From: an uncultured Alphaproteobacteria bacterium
GTDB lineage: Bacteria; Pseudomonadota; Alphaproteobacteria; 43-37; CAWALT01
DNA length: 64,000 nucleotides
Assembly (NCBI GenBank): GCA_963782975.1
Contig: CAWALT010000002.1
Span: 266,533-330,532 of the forward strand
Direction of reading: 5' to 3'
Shown: one piece after another, positions 4,853-55,897 of the stretch
How positions within the stretch are numbered: the first letter of the stretch is position 1
Layout: each line of letters starts with the position of its first letter
Notes under the pieces: model-generated
What the model was told of the DNA's origin: nothing
The model's database searches: none
Seen by the model: only the letters and a program-made list of their open reading frames with translations
Translations under genes and position numbers: made by a program

Positions 4853-5291
4853 TAAAGTCTCTTCTTGAGTAATTTCCTTAGTACACTCTTTGGTTAACTC
4901 TGCGAGTACACGCGCTATTTTACTGGCGAAGGCTTGTTTTTGTCTCGATTAAGCAAGAAATTAAATCCTCTTTGTTTTTCACGATAGGATGGTCTGGATT
5001 ATAGAGAAAGCCTACCCGGTAAATACGTAGCTTGTTAGCAGTTGAGAGTGGGTATCAGCATAACTTTTAAGCCCTCCGTTCTTTCTACGTTTTATCCTTT
5101 CATGACCGCGAGTTAGTCGTCTCTCTCCTGATAAGGGACCCGCGAAAGTGGCTTAGACCTCCCATAATTTCTTCATCAATCTGGGCTCCTTCGCGAGGCT
5201 CACCAGGAATGGGAAACGCGTCTCTTAAGATCCTTTCAAACATCCTTTTATATGTTAGAATTCAAACAACGTAATTAAAAGAGGATTCGAT

Positions 5292-5582
5292 ATGCCACCA
5301 GCCTCACGAATAACGGATATGCATACGTGTCCACAGGTGACGGTTATTGTGCCCCATGTGGGTGGCCCGGCACTTGGCCCTCCGACCCCTACGGTGCTTA
5401 TGGGAGGTTTGCCCTCCATTGGCATGGGGGCTATGTGTGTTTGTGTTGGTCCGCCTGATAGCGTAGCGATGGGGGCGATGACGGTTCTGGTGGGCTCAAA
5501 GCCTGCTGCGCGGATGGGAGATAGTACAGCCCATGGAGGGGCTCTTGTCTTTGGTTTCCCAACTATTATAATTGGAGGTTAG
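5292..5582 (+). CDS. PAAR domain-containing spike-tip protein (orphan)
   Basis: PASRITDMHTCP..PHVGG..C.C..PAARMGDSTAHGG; GAGG RBS. Confidence 0.92.
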   Translation: MPPASRITDMHTCPQVTVIVPHVGGPALGPPTPTVLMGGLPSIGMGAMCVCVGPPDSVAMGAMTVLVGSKPAARMGDSTAHGGALVFGFPTIIIGG

Positions 5583-9499: not shown

Positions 9500-10759
9500 T
9501 TACGTCTTCAAAGGAAGGCGCTCTGGTTTAGTTTTTGCTTGATGTTGCCTCTTTTCTGACTTTTCTTGGGAGGAGGTTAGCTGCTTGGCCCCTTCAAGAA
9601 CGTGAGCCACATCTTTCCCGCTTGGGCTTTGATAAACCTCTAATTCAAAAAAGGGAAGGATAGCAAACAAATGTTCGAAGATGCTTGATTGGGCCTGCTC
9701 ATAACTTACCCAAGCGGTATCTTTGTAAAAGGCATAAACCTCTAAAGGGACTCCTTGAGGTGTGGGCGCAAGAAGCCGAATGAGGAAAGTAAAATCCTCA
9801 TTGGTAATATAGAGGCTGCTCTTTAAATAAGATTCAACATAGAAACGAAACAAGCCTAAGTTGGTACGATCATCAAAAGCCTGGTCAAGAGGTTTTTGGG
9901 GATGGCGCTCTAAATAATGTGCTAGCCGTTCATTCCCTTTAATGGCTTTAAAGAGTTGGTCATCTAAAAATTTGATGCTTGTTTGATCAATTAAAATGGA
10001 CCGCTTTATACGCCGAACTCCCGCTTCATACATTCCCCGCCAATTCTTAAAGCCCGTTTCCATTAATTTATACGTGGGAATGGTGACAATCGCTTGATCC
10101 CAATTTTGAACTTCAATGATATGAAGAGCGACATCCACTACTGAACCACTAGCCCCAAAGCTCGGGACATCAATCCAATCGCCTTTTTGAATAAGGTTGT
10201 TCGCCAAGAGCTGCATGCCGGCTATAAAAGATAAAATAGTGTCGCGGAAGACAAGAAGGAGAAGAGCGGTTAAAGCACCGATACCGCTTAAAAAAGCAAG
10301 AGGGGACTTGTCCATCAAGATGCACATAGCCACCACAGCGCCAATAAGATAAATGAATAACGTAAAGAGCTGAATGAGTCCTTTAATAGGACGCTTCTTT
10401 GCCACAGGCTTCAAATTATAGATATCACTGTAACTGGTGAGCAGTTTCCCAAGTAAGAAAGTGATGGTGATAATAATATATCCATTAAGCAAGCGGGTGA
10501 ACAAATTGGGGATATGCGAGTAATGGTGAATGCCCGAATAAAGAATAATACTAGGAATCAGATATAGCAGCTGATGAAACGTATGATTTTTTTCCAAAAT
10601 ACGCCGTATATGGTGATCCCAACGACCCGCCAAGCGATAGATACCTTTTATAAGGACAAACTTGGTTATATAGTAGCTCACAAGACTTGTAAGCATGCTT
10701 AAGAAAAGTGCCAGATTCTCTTGGGTAGCAATTAAATCCCACATACTCTTATTACCCAT
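9500..10759 (-). CDS. Mechanosensitive channel, MscS family (YbdG-like)
   Basis: TM helices, GIGALTALLLLVFRDTIL, GDWI, VQNWD, FKNWRGM..RRIKRSI. Confidence 0.9.
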   Translation of the reverse strand: MGNKSMWDLIATQENLALFLSMLTSLVSYYITKFVLIKGIYRLAGRWDHHIRRILEKNHTFHQLLYLIPSIILYSGIHHYSHIPNLFTRLLNGYIIITITFLLGKLLTSYSDIYNLKPVAKKRPIKGLIQLFTLFIYLIGAVVAMCILMDKSPLAFLSGIGALTALLLLVFRDTILSFIAGMQLLANNLIQKGDWIDVPSFGASGSVVDVALHIIEVQNWDQAIVTIPTYKLMETGFKNWRGMYEAGVRRIKRSILIDQTSIKFLDDQLFKAIKGNERLAHYLERHPQKPLDQAFDDRTNLGLFRFYVESYLKSSLYITNEDFTFLIRLLAPTPQGVPLEVYAFYKDTAWVSYEQAQSSIFEHLFAILPFFELEVYQSPSGKDVAHVLEGAKQLTSSQEKSEKRQHQAKTKPERLPLKT

Positions 10760-10914
10760 TTCGTTATTTACTTCTTACGAGAGACCTTATCTTACTAAAG
10801 AAAATCTTTTAATTTCTTAAATTATACCATTTTTTGTGTTTCTCTTCAAAAGATGGTTAAAAAGACCATACCCTTTACAATGAGAAAAATTTTTTGGTAT
10901 TGCCTTCTCTAAGG

Positions 10915-12564
10915 TCACCTTTTTTTTTGGTCTGCCTTAAACTTTTTCTTCATATTTTGAGACGGGTCTTGAGACAACTTATCGCTTTTCATCTGTTTGG
11001 CTCGAGAGATTCCCAGAATCTCTTTCTGGTAATCCGCTAATGTCTCTGGGTATGGCACTACCTTTTGATCTGCCACCAGCCACATATGGTCGACCGTTAA
11101 TTCGAGTAAATGCCAGTCATGGCTGATGAGGATCACCGCGCCCTCAAATTCATTAATAGCCATAACCAAACTCTCCCGCATCTGCATATCAAGGTGGTTC
11201 GTTGGCTCATCGAGGATAAGGATCTGAGGCTGGTTATACGTTACCAAGGCAAAATTTAAGCGTGTTTTTTCACCACCCGAAAAGCTTCCGACAGGCTGAA
11301 AAACCTTTTCTCTGGTAAAGCCAAAGCGACCAAGGCGCTCACGAATTACTTGGTCTTTTTCCTCCGGCCCCTTTTCGCGTAGATGATCAAAAGCTGTTTT
11401 ATGAGGTTGAAGCGCTTCAATTTGATACTGGTGAAAATAACCTACCTTCAGTTTATCCGATTTAGCCACCTGACCTTTCATCGGCTTGAGAAGACCCGCG
11501 ATTAATTTTGCGAATGTTGATTTTCCATTTCCATTTTTTCCTAATAAGGCGATGCGATCATCAAAATCAATACGTTGATTAAGACCTTGCAAGACAATCT
11601 TTTCTTCATAGCCGACAGTGACTTTATTCAAAGTTATCAAGGGAGGTGCAAGAAAAGAAGGCTGAGGGAAGGAGAGATTCATGTTTGCCTCTTCCTTAAG
11701 AAGATTAATAGGGTCAAACTTTTCCAGCATCTTAATACGGCTTTGAACTTGTTTAGCCTTTGAGGATTTTGCACGGAAACGTTCAATAAAGGCTCCAATA
11801 TGTTTACGGGCTGCTTCTTGCTTTTTAAGTTGAGCTTGTCGATGAGCCATGGTTTCCCGGAATGTTTTCTCGAAAAAATCGAAATTTCCAAAGTAAGCTG
11901 TTAATTTTCCTTCTTGAAGATGGAAGATCTGTTGCGCCACTTCATTTAATAGATAGCGATCGTGGCTAATAATAAGGAGAGTTCGTGGATAACTTTTAAG
12001 ATATTGAATAAGCCAAGCGGTTGATTCAAGGTCAAGATGGTTGGTAGGTTCATCCAAAAGGAGCAGATCAGGCTCAGCAAAGAGACAGGCCGCAAGGGCA
12101 ATCCTCATACGCCATCCCCCTGAAAAAGAGGAAGCTGGGCGATGCTGTTCTTCCTCCTCGAACCCGAGACCTTTTAATATTTTTGCCGCACGAGCCGGGC
12201 CGCTGTAGACATCCATATCTTCAAGCTGCTCATAAATCTCTGCAATGCGTTCAGGGGTAATTGTTTCCTCTCCCAACTCAGCATATAAGTCTTGTTCTCC
12301 GCTTGCTGCGATCACATACTCTAAGGCTGTTACATTGCCAAAATCGACTTCTTGTTCCAAAGTAGCAATGCGCATCTTGTTCGGGACGGAAACCTCTCCC
12401 CCATCAGGTTGAAGCTCTCCTTGGATAAGGCGAAACAACGTGGATTTGCCTGTTCCATTTTGGCCAACGATAGCTGCACGCTGACCCTTTGACAGACACA
12501 TCTGGGCACCGTTGAAGAGTTCTCGACCGCCAATGCGATAGGTGAGGTTTTGAACATGCAACAT
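10915..12564 (-). CDS. ABC-F family ATPase (YheS-like)
   Basis: Two ABC cassettes (GQNGTGKST/FSGGWRMR/LDEPTNHLD; GKNGNGKST/FSGGEK), no TM segments. Confidence 0.93.
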   Translation of the reverse strand: MLHVQNLTYRIGGRELFNGAQMCLSKGQRAAIVGQNGTGKSTLFRLIQGELQPDGGEVSVPNKMRIATLEQEVDFGNVTALEYVIAASGEQDLYAELGEETITPERIAEIYEQLEDMDVYSGPARAAKILKGLGFEEEEQHRPASSFSGGWRMRIALAACLFAEPDLLLLDEPTNHLDLESTAWLIQYLKSYPRTLLIISHDRYLLNEVAQQIFHLQEGKLTAYFGNFDFFEKTFRETMAHRQAQLKKQEAARKHIGAFIERFRAKSSKAKQVQSRIKMLEKFDPINLLKEEANMNLSFPQPSFLAPPLITLNKVTVGYEEKIVLQGLNQRIDFDDRIALLGKNGNGKSTFAKLIAGLLKPMKGQVAKSDKLKVGYFHQYQIEALQPHKTAFDHLREKGPEEKDQVIRERLGRFGFTREKVFQPVGSFSGGEKTRLNFALVTYNQPQILILDEPTNHLDMQMRESLVMAINEFEGAVILISHDWHLLELTVDHMWLVADQKVVPYPETLADYQKEILGISRAKQMKSDKLSQDPSQNMKKKFKADQKKR

Positions 12565-12743: not shown

Positions 12744-13046
12744 ATGTTCACACGTTCGATAGTTAGTGCTTTAGGAGCAGTTTTAATTTTTTCACTTGGT
12801 GCTTGCGATAAAGAGTCAAAGAAAGTCAGCGAGAAGTATCCTGAAGACTTTCGGGAAAGCTTTGTCAGGCATTGTACAGAAGCTTCAAAGAATGATGAAG
12901 CTTATTGTAAGTGTGTGATTGGAAAACTTGAAGAAACCACCCCCTATGAAAAGCTCAAAGAATACGAAGATAAAGTTCGCGAGGGTAAAGAAGGGGACAT
13001 TGCCATAAAAGCGGATATCGAAAAAGCAGCAGCCGCTTGCCATTAA
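12744..13046 (+). CDS. Small Cys-containing lipoprotein
   Basis: Lipobox LGAC; F...C-x10-C-x-C..C motif; AAGGA RBS. Confidence 0.8.
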   Translation: MFTRSIVSALGAVLIFSLGACDKESKKVSEKYPEDFRESFVRHCTEASKNDEAYCKCVIGKLEETTPYEKLKEYEDKVREGKEGDIAIKADIEKAAAACH

Positions 13047-13502: not shown

Positions 13503-14636
13503 TTAGTATAAAGGTGTGGGCGCTGAGCCTGATTCTCTAACTAGTTTAAATGCTGGGGTTTTTGGTAAGCGTTTAAAGATGATCGTGCGAAATTTAGGAG
13601 GAGTAAGGGTGCGCACACCTTGGTGTCTGGTTGAGAGGTTGATTTCTTCTTCGGGATGCGGTGAAGCGTTGGGATGATGCCTATCAAGGGGCGATGGAGT
13701 TGTTAAACCATCTCCCTTCTCCAAGCCAGGTTGTGAAGCTTGACCAGGGTGGGGAAGAGACGAGCGAGTCTGTCCAGCAAGCCATATGTCTTGTCCAAAA
13801 GGTGGAAAAGAGGTGTTGCCTGAAAGAAAGGGCCGCCCTTCCCCTTCTGGGTTAGAGGATCTTCTTTCCTGCTTATAAAGGGGGGCTTTTCCTTTTATAT
13901 GTTGTCTTGGGTTGAGGGAAGATGGCGCCTCAAATGAATAGCTGGGCGGTGGTAAATTTGCTGGTGGTGTGAGGAAAGATAAGGGAATCGGCTGAAGGGA
14001 AGGTGCGTACTCACCCGTCTCCTCCATCTCTCTTTTTGCGGCTGACCTTGCTAAATAATCCTTTAAAATAGTACGCTGGGTTTGAAGTTTCCTGACCATT
14101 TCTTGATGTTCAGCTGCGATCTCAGTATATTTTTTAAAAAGAGCGCTGTGATAATTAAACGCTTGGTCGTATTGGTCTAGCGCCTCTGCGGGGTTGTAGA
14201 GAGGGTCGATATCAGCCCGTTGATGAGTTTTTCTATTAAGAGCTTTTTTCTTAGGCTTTACTCTTACCTTTGCCTTTTTGGCAGCATCCTGAGACTTTTT
14301 CTTATTTTTTTGTTTTATTGACTTCTTAGGAATGGTCGTTTTCTTAACTTTTTTTATTTGCTTAGGCTTCTTCTGCTTTTTTACTTTTTTTGGTGATTTG
14401 CTTGTTTTGGCCTTTTTCTTTGTTTCCGGCCCAAAGCTTTGAAAGATGCTTGGAGGTGCTGGAGGATGCGTTTTTGATATGGTTGGACCATGATAAATCG
14501 GCGGGGGTGCCGGGGGATGAGGCGTGTTTGTCGTTTGGGCTTCTATAATATTTGAAAACCCAGGCCTTGCTTGAATGGAAGACGGAGCTAGCAATAAAGC
14601 AATTATTAAGAAGCTTAAAAAGCGTGAGACTGGCAT
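13503..14636 (-). CDS. Secreted Pro/Lys-rich low-complexity protein
   Basis: Signal peptide ending IQA; PPAPP motifs; Lys-rich tract; short coiled coil. Confidence 0.7.
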   Translation of the reverse strand: MPVSRFLSFLIIALLLAPSSIQARPGFSNIIEAQTTNTPHPPAPPPIYHGPTISKTHPPAPPSIFQSFGPETKKKAKTSKSPKKVKKQKKPKQIKKVKKTTIPKKSIKQKNKKKSQDAAKKAKVRVKPKKKALNRKTHQRADIDPLYNPAEALDQYDQAFNYHSALFKKYTEIAAEHQEMVRKLQTQRTILKDYLARSAAKREMEETGEYAPSLQPIPLSFLTPPANLPPPSYSFEAPSSLNPRQHIKGKAPLYKQERRSSNPEGEGRPFLSGNTSFPPFGQDIWLAGQTRSSLPHPGQASQPGLEKGDGLTTPSPLDRHHPNASPHPEEEINLSTRHQGVRTLTPPKFRTIIFKRLPKTPAFKLVRESGSAPTPLY

Positions 14637-14987
14637 CTTCAAGACCACCTTATAGTTTTGATTTTCATACCAAAGTTCTATTTTTAATCTATTTTAGAAA
14701 GGAATCATTTCTAAGCGATTAATAAGGGGACTATCCTCAAGCAAGCTTTGAATTTTAGCCCAAGAGGCAAAGATAACAGGTGTTTCTATATCCTGCCCAG
14801 AACCGGAAAGGTAAATATATACGCAGAAGATTGAGTAAATAAAAAAAGCGTGCCTTAAAACTTAAGCCACGCCAATCTTTTGCTGTTGTACAATAGGGTT
14901 CTTCTTTTTAGCTTAAAACCGGAAGTTGGCAAGGACTGCAGCTTCCTTAAGGAGCTCCCTCATGTTCCTTTGCCTATTGAGTGCCTT

Positions 14988-15227
14988 CTAATAAAGCTTA
15001 TATTGCATTTTTCCTTTCCCCTTAGAATTCTCTTTTTTGTCTTTTTTCTTTTCTTTTTTATGTCCAGGTTTGGAAATTTTAGGCAATTTGAGCGTGTTTC
15101 CTACGTTGATGTTCATGCCTGGAGTGAAGGTCGGATGGCTTCCACCAGTAGCCTTGGTTTGAGAGGCCATGCCTGCTCCTAAGAAAAGTCCAGTTGCAAT
15201 AAGGCTTGTATAAAGTAATTTTTTCAT
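14988..15227 (-). CDS. Small secreted Lys-rich protein
   Basis: MKKLLYTSLIATG..TKA leader; KKEKKKDKK tail. Confidence 0.65.
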   Translation of the reverse strand: MKKLLYTSLIATGLFLGAGMASQTKATGGSHPTFTPGMNINVGNTLKLPKISKPGHKKEKKKDKKENSKGKGKMQYKLY

Positions 15228-15290
15228 TTTTATTCCATCCACGTTAAGATTTGTTTTAAGGGTAGTGGAATATGTTGTACAAAGAAAACT

Positions 15291-15305
15291 TTAACGCCTT
15301 ATTAA
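15291..15305. promoter_or_regulatory. Possible CtrA box
   Basis: TTAA-cgcctta-TTAA (N7 spacing) about 64 bp upstream of the 15227 start; the context is AT-rich, so it may be chance. Confidence 0.35.
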
Positions 15306-15578
15306 AAATGAGTAAAACTAAATATTAAAGAATATAAATTTGATTTTTAATTGCATTATTTAACAATAGAGTTATTAATAAAAAAAGAATTTATTAAAAA
15401 ACAGCAATGATTTCGATCTTATTTCTGGAAGTTAATTAGTAAAATCCATCAATTCGGAATACCATTAAAAGAAATATTTCTTTACTTAAGAGAGGAGGTG
15501 ACTTGGGAGAGGATTAAGATTCTGGGTAGTTATAAGTACAGTTATTTGTTTAATTTAAATGTTCCCTTCTAAATGTAG

Positions 15579-15609
15579 AAAAAGTCGCCATAACCTATGG
15601 CGACTTTTT
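15579..15609 (-). terminator. Intrinsic terminator of the His-rich gene
   Basis: aaaaagtcgccata-acc-tatggcgacttttt. Confidence 0.8.
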
Positions 15610-15639
15610 TCTTCGAGCGTAACGGCAAGACTCTTTGTC

Positions 15640-17034
15640 TTAGTGGTGCATATGTACCCTTCCAAAGCCTCTGCTTTGCTTTGTAACAGGCTTTTTGCTT
15701 GCGTGCGGATTGCCTCCTGCATGCGGAAGAGCATGAGGGTGCGGCAGCACTAAGTGTGGCTGTGTAGCCACGGACTTCTTGGGCTTAGCAACCGGCTTTT
15801 TGCTTGCAGCACCTCCTACATGAATATGAGGTGTCGCTTGTTTCTTGGGGGGATGTGTTTGTTGTTTTTTTAGAGTACTTTTGCCGCGCACTTTCGGTTT
15901 TTGCACTACCGACCCCGAGATACCTTTACCATGAGTTGGAGCCTTAATTTTCTTCTTATGTGCCGGCGCTTTAGAGGTATGCGTAGGTGTGTGCGGTTGC
16001 TTTATATGGTACACCATTGGTGTATACGGTATCTTCTTTATAACCCCACGCTTTATGGCCTTGTGCTCATGATGGGGCGCTTTGTGTGCTGGATGTCCAT
16101 GATGAGAAGCCTTGGGCCCATGATGCCCATGGTGGGAAGCTTTGTGCCCATGGTGCAAAGCTCGTTGTGCATGGTGCGATGCTTTTCTTTCATGGAAGGC
16201 GCGCCGCTTAGGATCCGTGTGGTGGGAAGCTTTGTGCCCATGGTGTGACGCTAGGTGGTCATGGTGCAAAGCTCGTTGTGCATGGTGCGATGCTTTTCTT
16301 TCATGGAAGGCGCGCCGCTTAGGATCCGTGTGGTGGGAAGCTTTGTGCCCATGGTGTGACGCTAGGTGGTCATGGTGCAAAGCTCGTTGTGCATGGCGCG
16401 ATGCTTTTCTTTCATGGAAGGCACGCCGCTTAGGATCCGTGTGGTGGGAAGCTTTGTGCCCATGGTGTGACGCTAGGTGGTCATGGCGCAAAGCTCGTTG
16501 TGCATGGCGCGATGCTTTTCTTTCATGGAAGGCACGCCGCTTAGGATCCGTGTGGTGGGAAGCTTTGTGCCCATGGTGTGACGCTAGGTGGTCATGGTGC
16601 AAAGCTCGTTGTGCATGGTGCGATGCTTTTCTCTCATGGAAGGCGCGCCGCTTAGGATCCGTGTGGTGGGAAGCTTTGTGCCCATGGTGCCTATGATGGA
16701 TACCTTTTGCTTTTCTATGGCGGTGATTTGTAGAATGTTGGTGTTTGTGATGCCCTTTATCCTTAGATTTATGTGCGTGGTGAGGGGCGTAGCTATCAGT
16801 ATGAGCCGGGCTGCTATGCGTTGTCTGTGCCTTTGTAGAAGACGATGTGCCGATATGTCCTTCACGAGCTATCTCTTCCTTTAGTTCCCGCTGTTTCAGT
16901 TTGGCACTTGGATGCGTGGCGAGATAATCGAGCCGCTCAGTAAGGGTTTCTGCTAACGCTAAGCCCTTGGAGCCTAAGAAAGGAGCTCCAATAAGACTCG
17001 CTGCCAATAAACTTCTAAAAATTATTTTTTTCAT
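15640..17034 (-). CDS. Secreted His/Lys/Arg-rich repeat protein
   Basis: MKKIIFRSLLAAS..ALA leader; 5 x 37-aa His-rich repeats; own terminator. Confidence 0.8.
   Translation of the reverse strand: MKKIIFRSLLAASLIGAPFLGSKGLALAETLTERLDYLATHPSAKLKQRELKEEIAREGHIGTSSSTKAQTTHSSPAHTDSYAPHHAHKSKDKGHHKHQHSTNHRHRKAKGIHHRHHGHKASHHTDPKRRAFHERKASHHAQRALHHDHLASHHGHKASHHTDPKRRAFHERKASRHAQRALRHDHLASHHGHKASHHTDPKRRAFHERKASRHAQRALHHDHLASHHGHKASHHTDPKRRAFHERKASHHAQRALHHDHLASHHGHKASHHTDPKRRAFHERKASHHAQRALHHGHKASHHGHHGPKASHHGHPAHKAPHHEHKAIKRGVIKKIPYTPMVYHIKQPHTPTHTSKAPAHKKKIKAPTHGKGISGSVVQKPKVRGKSTLKKQQTHPPKKQATPHIHVGGAASKKPVAKPKKSVATQPHLVLPHPHALPHAGGNPHASKKPVTKQSRGFGRVHMHH
16128..16689 (-). repeat. Coding tandem repeat, 111 bp x 5
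   Basis: GGATCC recurs at 16211, 16322, 16433, 16544, 16655; unit HHGHKASHHTDPKRRAFHERKASHHAQRALHHDHLAS. Confidence 0.97.
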
Positions 17035-17362
17035 GCTTGGTTCCACCCATTGCTAATTAAATAAAAATTTTGATCTTTCCTCATATTGTGATAAAAAGGT
17101 TGCTGTTTTATTAAGTATTTAAAAAATATAATATCATTTAAACTAAAATTTTAAATATAAGTACATGTTAGTTCAAATTTATATTTTATATTGTGTTAAA
17201 CGGTATGATGAAAAATATTTATTAAAAATATTAGAATAAGAATACGATAACTGCATAAGGTAGTTATGAAGAGGGGGGTCATGTGCTGGACAGGTCACTC
17301 GAATATCAACCTATGATCCTGGGAAAAGCCATATGTCCTTCGTTTTAAAGGATGAGAAACCT

Positions 17363-17923
17363 CTATTTAATAGGATCGCCGTCATTTTCTTCTTGTTGTT
17401 CATCAACCTGGATTTGGCCTTCGTTTGTGCCTGGAAAATAATGGACGTTGAAAGGGGGCTGTTTTAATGAGGTTGATTCGCTATCCAGGGTCATATCATC
17501 CTTTTTATATCTACTATCATAATTAACTTCTTCAAAGGAGCCCTCTTCTTTTCCTAGGGTATGCAGATCCTCCGTCGTTTCTTGGTCATTCTCTTCTTCC
17601 TGAGAATTACCCGGTAGCATAGCTTGGGTGGGCGATATTATCGTCGGTTCTCTTGGGCACTGGTCTGCTTCTTTGCCAAAATTAAAGCCTTTTAAAAGCG
17701 CCGCTTTTTTGCAATTTTTTATAAGTAAGGTGTAGCGATCATGGCAACGTTTTAAGCATGTGGAGAAATTCTCTTGACTCTCTGCACAGAAAGATTCTGT
17801 GCAGGTAGTTAAGCAAAACCGTGCCTCTTTAAAAGAGGGAAAAAAAGCATAAGAAACGTCTAGGAGCCCGAAGTTCCCATAAATAAAAAATAAAAACAAG
17901 GTAGCTTTTTTGTTTATCCCCAT
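17363..17923 (-). CDS. Secreted protein, Cys-rich N-domain and acidic tail
   Basis: Leader ending SYA; CLTTC..FC..CLKRC..NC; E/D-rich C-half. Confidence 0.7.
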   Translation of the reverse strand: MGINKKATLFLFFIYGNFGLLDVSYAFFPSFKEARFCLTTCTESFCAESQENFSTCLKRCHDRYTLLIKNCKKAALLKGFNFGKEADQCPREPTIISPTQAMLPGNSQEEENDQETTEDLHTLGKEEGSFEEVNYDSRYKKDDMTLDSESTSLKQPPFNVHYFPGTNEGQIQVDEQQEENDGDPIK

Positions 17924-18206
17924 TATAAAGCCCAATCAGATAACTTTTAAAAACTATCGTTACGACTCTGTTCGGTCTCTTGTCATTATTTGATGATTAA
18001 GTTGATATCTCCTTAATAAAGGGGGCAAATAAAGATAGGAGCATTTTTAAAATTTAAAGTTTGCCTATTTCCAAGGAAGTCATGGCTTTTGAAGAAAAGA
18101 AAATCGGCTTCAAAAAAATAAGAAAGGGAGCTCCTAATAAAATGGGCCCCCTCTCCTTAACAATCTACAGGTTCGAGAATCTGCGTTATGCTATAGTGGC
18201 CATGTT

Positions 18207-19409
18207 TTAATCACTTGGATTCCACTCTTCCCAACGGTGTTGGCCAAAAAGCCCCTGCTGTGGGGAAGATGCCCGAGCTTGAACTTTTCCTGTAATTTCT
18301 CTTTGGATGTTATGAGGCATTACTGTCCACATACCATGATCGTTGCCGGCTTGAGGCCTTCTAGCGGTTTGGGGGCCTGGAGCATGAGGCCGGGCCATTG
18401 GGTGACGCATGGCTTGACCCTGAGGTATGCCCTGTGGGCGCGCCATTTGTTGTGGTCCTCTCATCAAAGGAGGCTTGGGCCCTATAGACGATGAGGCTTT
18501 AGCAGGTCCCCTATCCATTTCGCTAGAGAGGGAAGATGAGTGTTGTCCCTTTGCTCCTCCCTTGCCGAAAGCGGGGGAGCTAAAAGGATCATCATCATCG
18601 CCAAAAGGATGGTCACCGCCGCCCTCGTCGCCGAAAGCATGGTCCTCACCACCCCCGAAAGAGTCGCCCTTGCCACCAAAAGGATGCTCACCACCGCCGT
18701 CATCGCCGAAAGCATGGTCCTCGTCGCCACCAAAAGGAAGCTCCTTCTCGCTTCCAAAGCCATGTCCTCCTGGGAATTCACCACCCCGGTGCAGGCCGCG
18801 CGATGTCTTAGGGGGGCTCATATAATGTAAATGCTGTGTCATTTCATGCTCTATATTTTCGAGAAGAGCCAAGTATTTATCCATCTCGTTCTCTCGCTCT
18901 TGCATATAGTAGCTGTCATTAGGTCTCAACCAATGAGCTTTTTGGTTCATCCGCGCATGGAATTCTTCCTCTTTAGCGCGTGCTTTTTTAATAAAGTCTA
19001 AGCTTTTTAGATAATATTTTTTTGCGCCCATAAGATCGGTCATGGAATGGGCATAGTAATCTCCAAGCTGCTTGTGGTATTTAGCAATTAAAGCATAGGA
19101 AATGGTGACAGCGCTCATGTAGTAAATAAAGGAGGGCATGTCACGCGCGGCGAAAAGGCCATTTTCCGATTGCCGCAAGTTATTTTCTTCTCTTCTTATG
19201 CGTCCCATTAGCGCCCGAGGACCATGACCAACGCCTAAGCTCTCGGCGGCTTGAGTTTTGGCTTTGGTAAGTTTGCTTTTAGCGCCGGCAGCTTTTCTTT
19301 TAAACTTATCAAAAATGCCCGCTTTCGCTGAAGTTGTAAAGGGAGGCAACGTTGGTATGGCCACTCCCATAGCTAAAATAACGGCAAGAGTTCGATGTAA
19401 TTTTTTCAT
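18207..19409 (-). CDS. Secreted protein, helical N-domain plus Gly/Asp/FG-rich and Pro/Gln-rich disordered tail
   Basis: MKKLHRTL..AKA leader; 2 x 25-aa (75 bp) FGG.EDHAFGD.GGG.HPFG repeat. Confidence 0.8.
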   Translation of the reverse strand: MKKLHRTLAVILAMGVAIPTLPPFTTSAKAGIFDKFKRKAAGAKSKLTKAKTQAAESLGVGHGPRALMGRIRREENNLRQSENGLFAARDMPSFIYYMSAVTISYALIAKYHKQLGDYYAHSMTDLMGAKKYYLKSLDFIKKARAKEEEFHARMNQKAHWLRPNDSYYMQERENEMDKYLALLENIEHEMTQHLHYMSPPKTSRGLHRGGEFPGGHGFGSEKELPFGGDEDHAFGDDGGGEHPFGGKGDSFGGGEDHAFGDEGGGDHPFGDDDDPFSSPAFGKGGAKGQHSSSLSSEMDRGPAKASSSIGPKPPLMRGPQQMARPQGIPQGQAMRHPMARPHAPGPQTARRPQAGNDHGMWTVMPHNIQREITGKVQARASSPQQGLFGQHRWEEWNPSD

Positions 19410-19535
19410 TGAATGGATACTCCTTATTATAAGATATCATTTTGGTCGTGTTACTATTATAAAAGTAAATAATTAATTTTTATTAATGGGTACCTCAATA
19501 TTATGGGCGAGCAGGTAAATCGCTGAGATAGATGA

Positions 19536-19563
19536 AGAAAGAGCAGGGGAACCTGCTCTTTCT
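19536..19563 (-). terminator. Intrinsic terminator
   Basis: agaaagagcagg-ggaa-cctgctctttct. Confidence 0.75.
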
Positions 19564-19594
19564 ATCTTCTTGCCTTTCGGTAAAAGCGCTCTTA

Positions 19595-20845
19595 TTAATA
19601 ACCCCAAGGGTTAAAGTCGCTATCATCTCTACCATCGCTATCACGGTCGAAGCCGTCATCTCCTGAGTCAGCAAAGTCTCCATCTCCTAGAGATCCCTCC
19701 ATTTCACCAGAGAAATCAGGAGCATCGAAATAATGACCGCCCATATGACCATCGAAGGGTCTATCATCGTCATCATCACCATCGCCGCTGGCTGAGGGGC
19801 CCCATGCGTCGAACGAGGTGCCACCGCTCATATCGGAATCAAAATCGTCGTCATGGTCATTGCCCCCCATGAAAGAACCGCTTCCGTAAGGGTCTGGGAA
19901 AGGAATAGGAGCACGGCTATGTCCCCCAAAGTCTGGATGTGGTTGACGGGCTGCCATAGGATGGCTGCCTGGATGATTCATGCCCCAAGGAGAGGGTTGA
20001 GCACCAGGATGGCCTGGATGATTCATGCCCCAAGGAGAGGGTTGAGCACCAGGATGGCCTGGATGATTCATGCCCCAGGGGGAAGGTTGAGCGCCAGGAT
20101 GACCTGGATGGTTCATGCCCCAAGGGGAAGGTTGAGCGCCAGGATGGCCTGGATGGTTCATGCCCCAGGGGGAAGGTTGAGCGCCAGGATGACCTGGATG
20201 GTTCATGCCCCAAGGAGAGGGTTGAGCGCCAGGATGGCCTGGATGGTTCATGCCCCAAGGAGAGGGTTGCGCCATCGCTTGACCTGGGCGGCCTCCTTTT
20301 TTCTTGCCTGGGAGAGAGAAGCTGTCTGGGCGGTTAATGCCGTATTGTGGCTTTTTGCCCTTAAAGGGTATTTGACCTTTCGAGGGAGCCCGTCCTTTGC
20401 CTGGGCCATAAGACGGATAGCCGCCAGCGAAAGGATGCATGCCTTGAGCAGGGGCGTACCCTGGATGCCCGTAAGCAGGATGTGCGCCTGGCATGTTTGG
20501 ATGATACCCGGGGCCGCCTTGCGGATGATACGGGGGAGCCATTCCATACGGTTGATCAAGAGCGCCCTTAAAAGCTTGACCTGTTTGGGTTAAAGCTTGA
20601 TCAAACCCATAAGCTGCTTGGCTTCCTGCCTGTGTCATTTGTTGGCTAGCTAAACTAGCGTTGTATAAACCTTGGTTGAGCCTATCTGCTCCGCGTTGGA
20701 GGCTCTGAGCGCCTTGTTGAACTTTTTTATGAGCTGCTCCTGCTGCGTGAGACAGTGTATCAAGAAAACTGGCTTTTAAGGGTTGAACCATGGAAGCTCC
20801 TACCATTCCTGCCGTTATTAAACTTGTAAAAATTATTCTTTTCAT
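19595..20845 (-). CDS. Secreted Gly/Pro/His-rich repeat protein with Asp-rich tail
   Basis: MKRIIFTSLITAG..LKA leader; 7 x AQPSPWGMNHPGHPG; acidic C-terminus. Confidence 0.8.
   Translation of the reverse strand: MKRIIFTSLITAGMVGASMVQPLKASFLDTLSHAAGAAHKKVQQGAQSLQRGADRLNQGLYNASLASQQMTQAGSQAAYGFDQALTQTGQAFKGALDQPYGMAPPYHPQGGPGYHPNMPGAHPAYGHPGYAPAQGMHPFAGGYPSYGPGKGRAPSKGQIPFKGKKPQYGINRPDSFSLPGKKKGGRPGQAMAQPSPWGMNHPGHPGAQPSPWGMNHPGHPGAQPSPWGMNHPGHPGAQPSPWGMNHPGHPGAQPSPWGMNHPGHPGAQPSPWGMNHPGHPGAQPSPWGMNHPGSHPMAARQPHPDFGGHSRAPIPFPDPYGSGSFMGGNDHDDDFDSDMSGGTSFDAWGPSASGDGDDDDDRPFDGHMGGHYFDAPDFSGEMEGSLGDGDFADSGDDGFDRDSDGRDDSDFNPWGY
19966..20272 (-). repeat. Coding tandem repeat, 45 bp x 7
   Basis: CATGCCCCA recurs at 19979, 20024, 20069, 20114, 20159, 20204, 20249. 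Confidence 0.97.
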
Positions 20846-20954
20846 TTTTTGTCCCATTTGTTGTTAGATTGGTGGTTAACATGTCTTGTTGTCCTTATGA
20901 GCTTGCCCTAAAAAGGTTTAAATTTGTTTAACCTTTCTGTGATTAAAGGAGCCA

Positions 20955-20991
20955 TAAAAAATCTCATAAAATAGGTTAATTTTATGAGATT
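20955..20991 (-). terminator. Intrinsic terminator
   Basis: aatctcataaaat-aggtta-attttatgagatt with a U-tract on the minus strand. Confidence 0.7.
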
Positions 20992-21030
20992 AAGGAGCTG
21001 TTTTAAGGTAATCGAAGTGACATCGTCCAG

Positions 21031-21564
21031 TTAAAAGAGGGGCGGTGGAGGAATATTGCTTCTCTTTTGTTTTAGCGAGTGGCGTATTCCTTGAGTGATT
21101 TCTTCGACCTTTTGTTGGTGGAAAGAGTGAGGTACATTATCAAGCTGGAAGGAGCGCTCCTGCATTTTCCGAGAAAGGTCCTTCACTTTAGGCTTATCAC
21201 CAGCTTGTCTATATAGTTGCCTTGCTTTAATGTAGAGAGCTCGTGCTATGGAATGATACTCTTCCCCTTTTACAAGAAGGAGAACATCTCCAAAACGTTC
21301 ATACATATTCGCTACGGTCTTTCTATTTTCTTCCGTAGAGTTTGCTTTAAGCTGAGCATTGAGCTTATTAAAAAACTCTTTTAAATTAATATAGATGCTG
21401 CCTCTCTTTTTTCTAAAATTTTGGCTCTTGTTCTTGCTTTTTATCGTTTCATCTACCGATTGGTGAATTTCAGCAACCTGTTTTGGATACCGAGCATGTG
21501 TATGATGGGAACAGAGAACTATCATAACCGTGATACTTAAAAAAAATCCCAAGCTTTTTAACAT
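21031..21564 (-). CDS. Secreted hypothetical protein (helical, PPPP tail)
   Basis: Leader ending THA; basic helical body. Confidence 0.7.
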   Translation of the reverse strand: MLKSLGFFLSITVMIVLCSHHTHARYPKQVAEIHQSVDETIKSKNKSQNFRKKRGSIYINLKEFFNKLNAQLKANSTEENRKTVANMYERFGDVLLLVKGEEYHSIARALYIKARQLYRQAGDKPKVKDLSRKMQERSFQLDNVPHSFHQQKVEEITQGIRHSLKQKRSNIPPPPLF

Positions 21565-22023
21565 TTTAATGTCCCGCTCTGTTATTTAGGTCCTATTAAA
21601 TTTACAGATAGAATCTATCATTACAGGAAGAAGTTTAACCGAAGAGTTGTTATCAATAAGTTAATAAAGGAGTTTATTTTTAGTTTTAAACTTTCCTATT
21701 TCATGATTTTTGTTTTTTACCCAAATGTGTCTTTGAGGCTATAGTTCTCTAGGAGGATTTACTATTATAGGGTTTTTTTTCTTAAAAAAGTAAGGATAGA
21801 GGCCGACTAGGGGAGAGACAAAGAGGCATCCTTAATCCTACTGGAAGTGCTGGTTCCTAAGTGATTTTGGAAGCAAAAAAACATTTTTTCTTAAAGAGGT
21901 GCATATAATAGTTGTTTTTAATTTGAGCAACTGTTATATGAAGGAATAGGGTAGTTGTCATACAGTTATTAAATCAGAGTATTGCTCCTTGCTGAATACT
22001 TGTCCAAGGGTGGAGTAAAATTG

Positions 22024-22809
22024 ATGTCAAAGCGGCGCCAACTTTATGAAAATAAGCAAAATGTAGTTTTCGAGGGTCCCGAGCCTGGAACCCTTGTCCA
22101 GTATTTTAAAGACGGGCAAAATCCTTGTCATTCTCAAGCTTTGGATATTACTAAAGGGGAAGGCGTCTTAAGTAATCGTATTACCGAGATTATTATGAAG
22201 CGCCTTGGCGATATGGGCGTAGTATCACGCTTCGTTAAGCGAATTAATATGCGTGAGCAACTTATCAAAACGACGGAGCCTCTTCCTTTTTCACTTCTGG
22301 TACACAATTATGTAAATGAGTCTTTTGCGGAAAGGACAGGCTTGGCATTAGGGACAAAGCTACCAAGCAGTATTTTTGAATTTTGGTGTGAGGATAAGCG
22401 TCGTCAAAAAAAGTTTTTTGTTTCTGAAAGTTATGTGACTGCCTTTAAAATGGCATCAAGCTATGACATTGATGATATGGTTGCTACTGCTGGACGAGTC
22501 GCTGATTTTTTGTGGGGATTTTATTCGGCGATTGGATTAAAGTTAGTCAACTTCCAAATCCATTTTGGTCGCAAATATGATGAAGCAAGTGAATATGAGC
22601 GTATTATCGTTTCGACAGAAATTGGCCCTCATATTTGTGAATTATGGGATTTTGAAACCGACGCGCTGATAACGCGTGGCGATGAGTCTTGCAGTTTAGA
22701 GGTTTATGAGATGATTGCTGATCGCTTAAATCTTAATAATCAACCTCCAAGCCTTCTTGACCATGCAATCCACTTACAAAACATTATCCCTCTTTCGGTG
22801 AAAGAGTAG
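22024..22809 (+). CDS. purC: Degenerate SAICAR synthetase (PurC-like)
   Basis: EGPEPGTLVQYFKD, G.L.NRI, RINMREQL match alphaproteobacterial PurC; catalytic motifs are altered. Confidence 0.8.
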   Translation: MSKRRQLYENKQNVVFEGPEPGTLVQYFKDGQNPCHSQALDITKGEGVLSNRITEIIMKRLGDMGVVSRFVKRINMREQLIKTTEPLPFSLLVHNYVNESFAERTGLALGTKLPSSIFEFWCEDKRRQKKFFVSESYVTAFKMASSYDIDDMVATAGRVADFLWGFYSAIGLKLVNFQIHFGRKYDEASEYERIIVSTEIGPHICELWDFETDALITRGDESCSLEVYEMIADRLNLNNQPPSLLDHAIHLQNIIPLSVKE

Positions 22810-50335: not shown

Positions 50336-53300
50336 ATGGAGAATATGCCTATGCTTTCTCGCCCAGGGTCTAAGTTTCGTTCTTCTCTTCTTTCTTTGGT
50401 TATTTTCTCTCTCATCTGGAGCAATCTCCTGACGGCAATCCCTTGCTCAGCCATTGTGCGTCATCATCACCTGGATGATGCGCGTTACTTAAAGGGCGCC
50501 GAGGCGTATCCCGCGGTGGGGATCCTCCACACTTCAGGGGGTTATTGTACCGCGACCTTGATTAAGGTGCCGGGCCGGCCGGAGCTGGATGGCTCGATTA
50601 TTTTAACGGCTGCTCACTGTTTACAGGATGCTCTCGTCTCCAAGGCGGCAACAGAGCAAGGGAAAGGTGGGGCTGTTTTTTGTCTGGGCGACGACTGTCA
50701 GACGATCGCTCTTGGGGCACACGCGATCTTTTCTCCTCTGGGCGCTCAACGTCCTCGAGGGGACTTCCTTACCCAAAACTTAGAAAGGTCCCAAGGGGAT
50801 ATGGCCCTTGCTTACCTTGCTTATAAGATTTCTTCCGTGTCACCCGCCGAGCTTTATCTCGAGCCAACGCCCCGGGCGGCTTTTGAGGGTAAGATCCTCT
50901 CTACCATTGGCCTGGGTCTGACCGGTCAATCCAATTGCTCCCTTCTTTATGAAGATGGCCAAAAACGCCTTATGGAAAATCCCCTTCGTCTTCCGCACGG
51001 GGAGAGCGAGTCGGCCTTCCTCCTAATCGACTTTACAAGCGAGGTACTCTCTCCCCCCTCTCTCCTGCGGGGCTTGCCGATGGACGGCGATTCGGGCGCG
51101 CCGGGTTTTATTGAGCAGGAGGGAAAGAAGAAAGTAATAGGCGTATATGTAAAAAGTAAAGCGCGCGCTTTCCTCCTTGAAAGGCTTCGCGTTGGGGGCG
51201 ATCCCCTCCTTTCTCGCGGTCAACAAACTTTCAGGAACTTCGATAAAGAGCCGCAGGGCTTCAGCGCACTGATTGACATGCACGACCTCGACAAAGAAAG
51301 CTCCTTCCTTTACGTACCGGCTCTTCGTTCCTGGTTCGCCAAGGTTTTTAAAAACTTACCCGACAAGCCTGGGGAGGCGGCCGGGTCGTTCTGGGGGAGG
51401 GAGCCATCGGCCTCTGTGCTCATCCAAGACAGAGGAGCGATGAAAGACGATCGGCAAAGCCTGTCTCAAGGGTGTAGCCTCCCCCTTTCCAGAAAAGAGG
51501 GAGAGTTTCTCTATCGGCTTGAGAAGGCGGCTAAGTGCCCGGTGCCTTCGCCGGCCTCCGTGGCTTCCTTCTCGTCTTCCTCTTCCTCTTCGTCTTCGTA
51601 CCCAGTCGATCACAGGTCCTTGCATAGCTTAGGTGCCCCCTCCTCGAGTGATAATTTGCTTTCTTCCACCACGCGGTACTACTCCATGCTTAGTACGATG
51701 TATACTCCTTCTTATGTGTTGGACGCTTATCAACGAGGGGACTCTATCCCTCAGAAATTCTCTGAGTTTGGGGAGTGGTATGGTGACCAAGTATGGAACG
51801 CGAGGCCGAGGGGGATTTCTTCTCAAAACTCCGAGTGGTTCAAGGACTCCTTAAGTGATAGAGATCGTCACGAACCGGGGAAAGAGTTCTTCGAGGGGCA
51901 AGAAGCGCCCTTGTGGTCCTCTCTTTCAGCAAGTGCAGGGCGTCAGCACATGGTGGAGGAGTATTTAACGCGTTATGGGATGGACTCTCTTCCTCCTTCT
52001 CAGCGGAATGAGGCGGGCGTAAGTAGCGCAATCCTTGAGAGGGTGATGAAAGAGCCGATGGCGCGCACCTTTGAAGAGGTGAAGGCGCATAGCGAGAGGG
52101 TGAGCCAGGCCGTCTCACTTTACCATCAAGCGTTCCTTAACGCTCGCCGTCCTCAAGAGAAGGAGCCCTATACGTTGGGCCAGGTGGAGCAACAGCTCCA
52201 AAAAATGGAAACATCGATTACCGCCATGGTCCCCAAGGAGGTGTGGACCCAGGAGGGATCGACGTGGAAAGAGATTCCCAAGGTGGAGGAGCAGAAGCTT
52301 GAGTTTAAGCCAATCCTTCTAATGGAGGCGCGTCGGACGACGTGGGAAGAAGAAAGTCGTATGTGGCAAGCAAAGCGAGAGGCGATGTTGCGGGAGTTCG
52401 ATGAGATAAGGGCCCGCTCTGGCCTTGCGGCCTTTCGACCCGTGTCGACGGCGTCGGCACCTTCCTTTGAGTTTATGTTTGCAGCGATGCAAGGGTTGCC
52501 GCGGGAGCTTTCGGTGCTTTTGGCGCCGCGGCCTCCAAAGGAGTTTACGGATGGGTATGAGATGGAGGGATCTCTTGCCTCGCCCATGGTGGTGGGCACC
52601 ACGTTAGGAACGGGCGTTGTGATGGAACACCCACGGGGCTATCCCATGGGCGCGGTGCTAGGTGGGGCGGTCGAGAGATGGGTGAGTCCTGAGCGGATGA
52701 TGGCGTACGTGGATCGATTGTATCGAGAGGAGCGGGCGGCGGGGGCTTCGCGCAACGAGGCGGATGTTCGGGTGGTGGATCGGGTCTTGAGGGAGGAAAG
52801 GCTGGGTCATTATCGCTTGTTACCGGCGGAGCAAGGGCAGATTACGCTGGCCTATGCGGGGCCGGTGGTGGGTTTGTTGGGCTCCACGGCGGCTGCCGGA
52901 GGAAAGGGGGTCACCGAGGCGGTGGTTGATCTGGGATCGTTGGGTACCACGCTGGGCGATGGTCTTGAATCGTTAGCCGTGACGCTGGAGGGGCAGATAA
53001 AGGCGCCTGTGACGCAAGGGAATCGTCTCTGGTATGCGGAGCGGGGCGAGAAGGAGCTGGGCGTGTTGCCTGACCAGGGGTCTGGCGCTGCCTCTTCCAA
53101 GGAGGAGCCGGAGGTGCATGCCACTGAAAAGCCGGAGCGGGTGATGTTGGCCTATGCGGGGCCGATGGCGGGTTTGTTAGGACCCGCGGTGGCCGCGGGG
53201 GCGAAGGCGGTGACCGAGGCGGTGGTTGGGACCGGCGTGGGTGCGATGGCGGGGGCAGTCCTCAAGGAAACGGTGGAGAAACTGACCACCCCGGCGCATG

Positions 53301-53749: not shown

Positions 53750-54024
53750 TGGAACATTGTTGTGAGGAGATGACCTTCCATATACATGAGATGGAAAAAA
53801 TTATGAGGTACTTTCCTAAGTTCCGAAGTTATGGGATTAAAGTAGACGAGAGTGTAACGCAGGGAATTATTTACTGCCCTTGGTGTGGGACGAAGCTTCC
53901 GAGAGATTTAACCTCTGAGCTCGCTCATATTGTGTTTGAGGAGTTGAAATTGGATGACTTTAGAGACCCGCGTCTGCCGGAAGAATTTAAAACGGACGAA
54001 TGGTGGCGGAAAAGAGGGTTGTAG
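53749..54024 (+). CDS. Putative immunity protein to toxin A (DUF6980-like)
   Basis: TAATG overlap with the toxin stop; HCC..M / IIYCPWCG.KLP. Confidence 0.8.
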   Translation: MEHCCEEMTFHIHEMEKIMRYFPKFRSYGIKVDESVTQGIIYCPWCGTKLPRDLTSELAHIVFEELKLDDFRDPRLPEEFKTDEWWRKRGL

Positions 54025-54164
54025 TCCGAGAAAATAGCAAGGTGATTGGGCGCGATGGCAAGGAAATTAAGTCTTCTAAAGAATCTCCTAACCCAGCGAA
54101 TCACCCGGATGCGCATATACCCTTAAACGAATGGGTGAAGTGGAAGGAATGGAATCAGCCATGA
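54024..54164 (+). pseudogene. Orphan C-terminal fragment of a third toxin tip
   Basis: Startless open frame VRENSKVIGRDGKEIKSSKESPNPANHPDAHIPLNEWVKWKEWNQP*; its TGA overlaps the next ATG. Confidence 0.65.
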
Positions 54165-54619
54165 AGAAACACATCAAGCATCCTTACATGCGAGTTGAAG
54201 TAGTTCTTTACTTACAAGACTTAGCGGATCGAGAAAAGCAATTAAAAGACTGGACATCATCAAAGGCAGCCCATCGCTTCTGGGATACACTAGGTTTTGC
54301 CATTAGTATGCTTTTTGATACTCTGGACCTGGAGGAGGATGCCGAGGGTGAGGTGGGCTATAGCCTTTATAGTGAAGAAGAAGTCAAAGCCATTAAGCCG
54401 GTGATGCGTATTTTAAGGCGGGTCCTGGACGAAATTGGCCGGCAGCAGCCCGACGAGGCGTATGTGAGCTCACCGTTATGGGACGAGGTGGTGCGCACGG
54501 CTGGGGAGGCGTATGAGGTCTTTAAGAAGCATGATGAGCTCTATGACTTCCAAGCCGATCTCGAGCGCGCCGATGCCGAATCCGCGGACGAAGACGAGGA
54601 GACCTCGCAGGAATCCTAA
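54161..54619 (+). CDS. Putative immunity protein (SCO4402-like), copy 1
   Basis: PYMR.EV..YL..LAD...Q...W..LFD..W.EV...A; acidic; ATGA coupling to the tip remnant. Confidence 0.75.
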   Translation: MKKHIKHPYMRVEVVLYLQDLADREKQLKDWTSSKAAHRFWDTLGFAISMLFDTLDLEEDAEGEVGYSLYSEEEVKAIKPVMRILRRVLDEIGRQQPDEAYVSSPLWDEVVRTAGEAYEVFKKHDELYDFQADLERADAESADEDEETSQES

Positions 54620-55893: not shown

Positions 55894-55897
55894 AGTT

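Follow-up and report, generated by a model that had tools for sequence, protein, structure and literature searches.

What would seven adjacent genes, all beginning with an export-like leader and six of them without a detected homologue, do for the alphaproteobacterium that carries them? The question is raised by genes A to G in a 64,000 bp stretch of DNA (the window; G000:C2:266533-330532, where G000 is the source genome), and positions below are those of the window unless they carry such a prefix. The genome of this uncultured member of the Alphaproteobacteria is 1,615,041 bp in three contigs, with a GC content of 0.43 and a completeness score of 100%, and its order consists of three species genomes only. 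The reading that we favour, and that in our judgement stands about an even chance of being right, is that the seven products would be extracytoplasmic, non-enzymatic multivalent binders acting at the envelope or at the host interface.

Gene content of the cluster

Seven co-oriented genes on the minus strand had been claimed at 13503-21564 in the original prediction, which was confirmed: open reading frames (ORFs) A to G are arranged head to tail between an ABC-F gene (10915-12564, minus strand) and purC (21982-22809, plus strand), and no other long ORFs are present in the region (Table 1). Each gene start was taken as the ATG directly before the leader; the longest ORFs begin four to five codons earlier in A, B, C, D and F. 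The spacers were found to contain no further small leader-bearing ORFs, and there was no tRNA or Rfam family in or beside the cluster.

The best single evidence that these are real genes is the tandem repeat of F. Its six full 45 bp units encode the same 15 residues, and the six sites that vary between them are all at codon position 3 and all synonymous, with 0 nonsynonymous changes; the repeat peptide is under purifying selection in this frame. The five 111 bp units of C contained four variable sites, two of them synonymous and two exchanging His and Arg, and are uninformative on selection because they are too alike. D was found in related genomes with its leader and five cysteines kept.

Codon usage was scored as log-odds trained on 482 long ORFs, for which true frames gave 0.232 ± 0.050 and shadow frames −0.033 ± 0.056. 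The in-frame scores were 0.144 for A, 0.285 for B, 0.073 for C, 0.176 for D, 0.255 for E, 0.242 for F and 0.160 for G; the low value of C is explained by its histidine bias (20% histidine). The GC content at third codon positions (GC3) of the seven genes was 0.37-0.45, compared to 0.407 ± 0.048 for the long ORFs of the genome. As GC3 is native, the raised bulk GC of C, E and F (0.50-0.54) is attributed to amino-acid content (Gly, Pro, His and Ala codons) and not to foreign origin, so the "island" that had been proposed stands as a contiguous cluster and falls as foreign DNA. Judged by its sequence, the cluster is a native chromosomal set of real genes.

Table 1. Coordinates of the seven genes and of the features associated with them
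Feature	Position (bp)	Strand	Description
Gene A	13503-14636	-	377 aa, pI 10.3
Gene B	14988-15227	-	79 aa, pI 10.2
Gene C	15640-17034	-	464 aa, pI 11.4, 94 His
Gene D	17363-17923	-	186 aa, pI 4.7
Gene E	18207-19409	-	400 aa, pI 9.2, acidic tract
Gene F	19595-20845	-	416 aa, pI 6.1, acidic tail
Gene G	21031-21564	-	177 aa, pI 10.1
Tandem repeat in C	16124-16689	-	111 bp x 5.1 copies, 37-aa unit beginning HHGHKASHHTDPKRRAFHERKAS, TRF 97% matches
Tandem repeat in F	19967-20269	-	45 bp x 6.7 copies (PSPWGMNHPGHPGAQ), TRF 94% matches
Shared 5′ module, B copy	about 15188-15242	-	DNA alignment A1
Shared 5′ module, C copy	about 16995-17049	-	DNA alignment A1
Shared 5′ module, F copy	20806-20860	-	ribosome-site region, ATG, first ~13 codons
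Hairpin and T-run after B	about 14841-14873	-	canonical terminator
Hairpin and T-run after C	15570-15612	-	canonical terminator
Hairpin and T-run after E	18112-18157	-	canonical terminator
Hairpin after F	19536-19563	-	strong hairpin without clean T-run
Hairpin and T-run after G	20954-20991	-	canonical terminator
Convergent small ORF	12744-13046	+	100 aa, lipoprotein-like leader (ending SLGAC), codon score 0.279, no family match
D-like locus in G001	9718-12180 and 5148-5561 in locus L093 (G001:C10:39500-59499)		two D-like genes and a repeat-protein gene

Export leaders and a shared 5′ module

All seven N-termini start with basic residues, continue into a hydrophobic core and contain a small-x-small site, with cleavage predicted at IQA↓R in A, TKA↓T in B, ALA↓E in C, SYA↓F in D, AKA↓G in E, LKA↓S in F and THA↓R in G. 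A signal-peptide heuristic was passed by 7/7 of the proteins, compared to 17.9% of 1466 proxy genes, and this, together with inspection by eye, bears out the Sec leaders that had been claimed for the whole set. Export of the seven proteins out of the cytoplasm via the Sec pathway is thus plausible; the Cys-rich domain of D fits an oxidising compartment and was counted toward it.

An automated count of consecutive leader-bearing genes gave a run of only five (C to G) because a 100-aa plus-strand shadow ORF had displaced B. The run is seven genes with B restored and eight with the ORF at 12744-13046, which may be an eighth exported neighbour; it lies on the opposite strand and was not counted in the set. 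Runs of at least seven were obtained in 0.66% of permutations (P = 0.0066). The genome holds one other such leader run, of eight genes (G000:C3:496398-507867), which includes a thioredoxin-fold ORF with CPHC, a 941-aa acidic protein and a pair of small paralogues whose leaders are identical.

Three of the leaders had been described as very alike, and those of B, C and F proved to be mutually nearest among 406 leader-like ORFs, with pair ranks of 38, 42 and 56 of 82,215. The likeness reaches the DNA just upstream of the ATG (DNA alignment A1, 74% mean column identity). Sequence comparison of the mature parts of B, C and F found no similarity, and an all-against-all comparison of the seven mature parts gave a best E value of 1.2. 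Since the leaders and their upstream DNA are alike and the mature parts unrelated, the pattern is read as local duplication of a 5′ module followed by divergence. The leader module of B, C and F probably arose in this way, with gene conversion or convergence as a possible alternative source of the likeness. A module made up of ribosome site and leader would have been copied locally, the mature parts would then have diverged fully, and the internal repeats of C and F would have expanded after the duplication. The cluster would thereby present a possible case of gene birth, in which a leader module was copied and repeats were expanded under purifying selection on the peptide.

Searches for relatives

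No family above cut-off was found for any of the seven proteins in Pfam or NCBIfam, as expected from the claim that none carries a recognisable enzyme domain. The rows obtained for F and G in Pfam and NCBIfam were weak (E 0.004-0.5), fell well short of the cut-off and were discarded. A, B, C, E, F and G had matches in 0/40 of the relatives searched. An exhaustive phmmer search of 1.84 billion representatives, and likewise a search of 5.8 billion clusters, revealed E to match only itself, and by this measure E is a strict orphan.

For G and D the word-based search returned self-matches only; no relative of G was found in a scan of a genome-contig collection, and none of F or A in a scan of a metagenome-contig collection. 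The ESM Atlas gave no usable match with E or F, C had no match in PDB, and a Foldseek comparison of the E model with PDB gave 0 matches at E ≤ 0.001, with generic long-helix rows only. F matched PDB 8zxl_X, a collagen-like fibril protein, with E = 2.3e-18, and this match was rejected as an artefact of repeat period and composition. It was composed of nine overlapping stretches, each with E of about 1 and 44-52 bits of bias, and arose because two 15-residue periods coincide. In the F unit Gly is at positions 5, 10 and 13, not at every third residue as in collagen-like proteins. The homologue of D described below was also missed by the word-based search, which makes it provisional to call A, B, C, F and G orphans. 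The cluster proteins are most likely lineage-specific and fast-evolving, as far as these comparisons indicate.

D and its family

The leader of D (1-26, SYA↓F) precedes a Cys-rich domain with the pattern C37-x3-C41-x14-C56-x3-C60-x10-C71 and a further cysteine, C46; the tail is acidic. A whole-genome HMMER search identified a homologue in the order relative G001 that is 27% identical (E = 3.2e-10). A profile of the N-terminal domain of D matched 3/3 genomes of the order (G002 weakly, E = 2.8e-4) and 1/398 other genomes of the class. Alignment of seven members of the family showed that all have the leader and five invariant Cys (C37, C41, C56, C60 and C71 in D) and that an acidic Asp/Ser/Glu tail ends 5/7 of them; the family profile had no match in PDB or Pfam. 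On the strength of these alignments D is a member of a new, order-wide family with a leader, a Cys hairpin and an acidic tail, and it adds one new conserved family for a deep lineage. The hairpin would be stapled by disulfides, and the family would be older than the module shared by B, C and F.

The D family has C-x3-C ... C-x3(2)-C with 13-14 residues between the pairs, a spacing that would staple two helices together and that resembles the twin CX3C of helical-hairpin proteins of the small Tim type. The family differs from the small Tim type in its extra Cys, export leader and acidic tail, and the likeness is one of motif only, with no profile match in Pfam or PDB.

A D-like gene of G001 directly adjoins a leader-bearing gene that encodes basic KGHAKAV-type 13-aa repeats and an acidic EEPAAA-type tail, and a second D-like gene lies 4 kb from the first. 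The repeat-protein gene is interrupted by an N stretch, so it was read as two ORFs. Because the flanking genes differ, the pairing is regarded as a recurring neighbourhood and not as synteny. A comparison of C with the basic repeat protein of G001 (E = 0.14) reflected composition only and was rejected. Synteny with the order relatives was unusable, as the purC query had no match in G001 or G002 and the ABC-F proteins were only 36-38% identical; the nearest species genomes are very distant, with GlyQ at most 68% identical to that of assorted alphaproteobacterial metagenome-assembled genomes.

A weak D-family paralogue is present in the source genome, in a small cluster at G000:C2:228487-231208, as a 154-aa ORF with a leader from residue 26 and no acidic tail, ending AHY. 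Its neighbours there are two leader-bearing proteins, one of 278 aa and low complexity and the other of 216 aa.

Architecture, charge and disorder of the proteins

The leader of A (1-23, ending SSIQA↓RP) is followed by a Pro-rich duplicated motif and a very basic Lys-rich tract with a net charge of +10 to +13 per 25 aa, SPKK included; then come a mixed-charge segment and a P/S/G-rich tail ending PLY. The sequence of A holds PPIY and PPSY, a duplicated THPPAPP and the Lys tract with SPKK. We take PPIY and PPSY to be PPxY-like motifs, and the Lys tract with SPKK is presumably histone-H1-like. In B, the leader beginning MKKLLYTSLIATG precedes a small basic peptide with a Lys-rich C-terminus ending KLY. 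In C, the leader beginning MKKIIFRSLLAAS (ALA↓E) is followed by a short N-terminal part that looks helical and by a body rich in His, Lys and Arg (94 His); the tail is rich in Lys and Pro.

In E, the leader (1-30, AKA↓G) gives way to a helical domain at ~29-197; an acidic tract of His/Phe-Gly repeats occupies ~205-275, and the tail is basic and rich in P, Q, G and R. Its single-sequence AlphaFold2 model has helices at 29-197, with pLDDT of 78-94 at 61-120 and below 50 for 197-400. The leader of F, beginning MKRIIFTSLITAG (LKA↓S), is followed by an N-terminal part rich in Q, A and G, a segment rich in G, P, H, Y and M, and a short basic segment; the repeat array comes next, and the acidic, Asp/Gly/Phe-rich tail ends WGY. 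G has a leader at 1-24 (THA↓R), is basic and ends PLF; AlphaFold2 placed helices at 27-169, making it all-helical at low confidence (mean pLDDT 56.6). A suspected paralogy of E and G, based on a TPR-like shared helix pair, was rejected (BLASTP E = 0.68).

The division into four basic proteins (A, B, C and G) and three with acidic tracts (D, E and F) was found to be correct. Charge blocks exceeded those of shuffled sequences in A, D, E and F (delta z = 5.3, 2.7, 2.3 and 5.5 respectively), and the sequence charge decoration (SCD) z, down to −14.2 for F, marks this protein as having the strongest charge segregation of the seven; B, C and G showed no blockiness against shuffles. The His content of C (21.6%) was the highest of 1309 proxy proteins, with F in the top 1% and E in the top 3%. 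The second most His-rich ORF of the genome (G000:C1:43548-43931; 127 aa, 12.6% His) also has a leader-like N-terminus.

A charge-hydropathy plot placed 7/7 of the mature proteins on the disordered side, compared to 4.5% of 1121 proxy proteins. This supports the description "largely disordered" in part only: half of E is helical, G is predicted to be all-helical and D has its five-cysteine domain. Mature D began after residue 22, not 26, in the charge-hydropathy, all-against-all, charge-block and His calculations, which leaves the conclusions unaffected.

The C-termini of 4/7 proteins are aromatic (A PLY, B KLY, F WGY and G PLF), compared to 8.6% of the 1309 proxy proteins, and 3/7 end in L-[YF], compared to 0.84% (11/1309). 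The nominal P values (1.5e-3 for an aromatic end and 2e-5 for L-[YF]) are overstated, because the pattern was spotted post hoc. These endings might be a C-terminal recognition signal.

Spacers and terminators

The spacers between the genes are 185-417 bp long with a GC content of 0.28-0.38, compared to 0.43 for the genome, in keeping with the AT-rich upstream regions that had been reported. A terminator for most genes had also been reported. Canonical hairpins with T-runs follow G, E, C and B, and the strong hairpin after F is without a clean T-run; after A there is a weak hairpin and after D none. Generic terminator-like sites numbered 15, with 13.2 ± 3.5 in shuffles, which is no excess. With a terminator of their own in four to five of the seven cases, the genes look mostly monocistronic, and at least four or five of them appear, from these signals, to be transcribed separately. 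The co-regulation that had been proposed found no support in the upstream regions, where no k-mer was common to the genes beyond the level of shuffles.

Host association and comparison with known systems

The genome encodes an ATP/ADP translocase (E = 1e-139), which was present in 0/14 control genomes, and the organism is probably a host-dependent symbiont of small genome, to judge by its gene content. A type VI sheath gene, TssC/VipB, was also identified (E = 8e-129), and VirB4 was not found in the genome. Candidate outer-membrane routes are a secretin beside a prepilin peptidase, a GspE/PilB-type ATPase and a TolC-like OEP.

According to a 2025 review (PMC11909080), nearly every Holosporineae genome other than those of Holospora retains the type VI system, vacuole acidification activates the infectious forms of Holospora, and the host-interaction mechanisms of Holosporales are largely unknown, with only the type VI system pointed to. 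Since the present genome carries the sheath gene of a system that Holospora is said to lack, the organism does not look like Holospora itself. The infectious form of Holospora obtusa has periplasm-specific proteins of 5.4, 15, 39, 63 (PRP1) and 89 kDa; some Holospora periplasmic proteins pass into the host, and PRP1 shows weak binding to host DNA (PMC9866348). These proteins resemble what is predicted for the products of the cluster in being leader-bearing, lineage-specific, non-enzymatic and stored outside the cytoplasm of an intracellular alphaproteobacterium. They differ in that no sequence relationship was found and that the infectious-form life cycle is a feature of Holospora. Nothing matched in the general library and relative searches ties the seven proteins to those of Holospora, no direct comparison having been made. 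The Holospora frame of the original prediction therefore keeps its suggestion of a host-associated lifestyle, which the ATP/ADP translocase makes plausible, and otherwise serves as an analogy.

Two further alphaproteobacterial systems are comparable. Rickettsia RARP-1 has a Sec signal, a large disordered region and no predicted enzymatic activity, and is periplasmic and a proposed scaffold (bioRxiv 10.1101/2022.02.23.481736); it shares the Sec signal, the disordered region, the lack of an enzyme prediction and probably the setting of an obligate intracellular alphaproteobacterium with the cluster proteins. Unlike them, it is a single conserved gene and has C-terminal ankyrin repeats, none of which were detected in the cluster proteins with Pfam at E ≤ 1. 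The Sec-delivered effectors of 'Candidatus Liberibacter asiaticus' are leader-bearing and mostly family-less, from a reduced-genome intracellular alphaproteobacterium, and are regarded as host-directed. Their host activity is experimentally supported; the cluster proteins are known from sequence, and four of them are much larger and repeat-rich.

Sandcastle-worm cement and the His-rich proteins of squid beak are secreted materials in which polybasic and polyacidic proteins, or His/Gly/aromatic-rich repeats, associate in a pH-dependent manner. These coacervate biomaterials come from animal glands and have no sequence relationship to the cluster, which they resemble in composition only.

Interpretation and alternative explanations

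Under the reading that we favour, the seven products would pass via the Sec pathway out of the cytoplasm and then act in the periplasm or envelope, or be released to the host interface. Their working parts would be long low-complexity segments bearing the segregated charge blocks of A, D, E and F and the His-rich tracts of C, F and E, whose charge would vary with pH and metal ions. They would bind one another, or else polyanions, metal or ligands of the host. The host-dependent alphaproteobacteria that live with protists remain poorly understood, and the cluster would offer a compact set of Sec-exported candidates independent of the type VI system.

Several points weigh against it. The leaders were judged by a home-made heuristic and by eye. 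No outer-membrane route is tied to the seven proteins, which may therefore never leave the periplasm, and host dependence was inferred from one marker gene and genome size. No upstream motif or k-mer shared beyond shuffles was found among the seven genes, and the codon scores of C and A were matched by some of their antisense frames. A, B, C, F and G may have undetected distant relatives, orphan status being solid for E only. Finally, not all seven suit the name "disordered binder", given the structure predicted for G, for half of E and for the N-terminus of D.

The earlier suggestion of a condensate or coat in the periplasm or outside the cell, in which the basic A, B, C and G and the acidic-tract D, E and F would be made together and co-assemble by charge and His-aromatic contacts, is in our view unlikely, though it fares best among the alternatives. 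It draws on the adjacency of genes for four basic and three acidic-tract proteins, the charge blocks of A, D, E and F, the His enrichment of C, F and E, and the aromatics interspersed in the acidic tracts of E and F. The D-like acidic-tail gene of G001 beside a gene for a secreted basic and acidic repeat protein fits it too, as do the periplasm-specific proteins of Holospora infectious forms (PMC9866348) and the activation of these forms by vacuole acidification (PMC11909080). Adjacency of opposite charges does not, however, show binding; B, C and G are without charge blockiness; no shared promoter motif was found, most genes have separate terminators, and the genome has the type VI system that Holospora lacks according to the review (PMC11909080). 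Functional charge pairing, if true, would be a rare case of bacterial extracytoplasmic assembly by disordered polyelectrolytes; if the pairing is non-functional, the cluster is an ordinary batch of orphan secreted proteins.

Slightly less probable again is that C, F and E are periplasmic metal or proton buffers or chaperones that bind Zn, Ni, Cu or protons and protect the envelope in a host vacuole that acidifies or is loaded with metal, the other genes being unrelated. Export leaders are present on all three, C heads the 1309 proxy proteins in His content with F and E close to the top, the F repeats contain His, Met and Trp, and those of E have the form Asp/Glu-His-x-Phe-Gly. His/Met-rich repeats are typical of periplasmic copper proteins, and the F repeat peptide is strictly kept while its DNA drifts. 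Composition alone is nevertheless weak evidence for a ligand; no metal-binding family was matched in Pfam, NCBIfam or PDB, no metal transporter or regulator lies next to the cluster, and at most 3/7 of the genes would be accounted for.

The co-assembled proteins of the condensate model might perhaps serve as a store, switchable by pH or metal, for discharge in the host vacuole. We consider it improbable that the cluster encodes such a switchable polyelectrolyte system outside the cytoplasm, released in an acidifying vacuole. At neutral pH, the acidic parts of D, E and F would keep the polycation C, with its 94 His, and the basic A, B and G in a dense complex. Acidification of the vacuole would protonate His, and the complex, swelling or dissolving, would act as a "proton sponge" that buffers the vacuole and would free the Lys-rich and motif-rich proteins onto host membranes or chromatin. 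If true, this would be a bacterial escape or invasion device based on a coacervate, and the recurrence in a distant relative of a D-like gene with a basic and acidic repeat protein would represent a conserved functional pairing.

That some or all of the ORFs are decaying or spurious, in a reductive genome with long intergenic regions, seems very improbable. Homologues are lacking for 6/7, the codon scores of C (0.073) and A (0.144) are low with antisense frames as high, and the spacers are long and AT-rich. Set against this, 177-464 codons are unlikely to stay open by chance at 43% GC, all seven ORFs start with leaders, the F repeats vary synonymously only, D is conserved across the order and canonical terminators follow four of the genes.

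A horizontally acquired genomic island or type VI cargo is hardly credible: the bulk GC of C, E and F (0.50-0.54), a PAAR gene 8 kb off and a polymorphic toxin cassette elsewhere in the window speak for it, but GC3 is native with the raised GC stemming from Gly, Pro, His and Ala codons, the cluster flanks (ABC-F and purC) are without tRNA, integrase or repeat boundary, housekeeping genes lie between the cluster and the nearest PAAR gene, 7/7 proteins have Sec leaders, which to our knowledge are not a feature of type VI cargo, relatives of D are confined to the same order, and the exhaustive search with E found no related sequences in other taxa.

Other features of the window

Just past the cluster, the region between 23786 bp and 31400 bp encodes a protein resembling IalB, a protein lysine methyltransferase of the PKMT type that carries the domains MethyTransf_Reg and PKMT_2nd, an alpha/beta hydrolase and an autotransporter of 1174 aa. 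By its gene content this is an envelope and host-interaction neighbourhood. That the Lys-rich cluster proteins are methylation substrates of the PKMT-type enzyme is pure speculation.

The high-GC (0.52-0.60) cassette at 50336-57541 contains a 1137-aa ORF with a C-terminal Pfam "Cytotoxic" domain, followed by DUF6980, three copies of DUF7945, DUF7674 and a second DUF6980. Its domains suggest a polymorphic toxin accompanied by an array of modules that are immunity-like or orphan. The PAAR gene is located at 5292-5582. A 95-aa ORF at 125-412, which partially matches the APH(6)-type kinase family and adjoins a GNAT acetyltransferase, may be a gene fragment, judging from the partial match. A 6S RNA match of 52.7 bits (cut-off 46.4) was found at 62422-62574.

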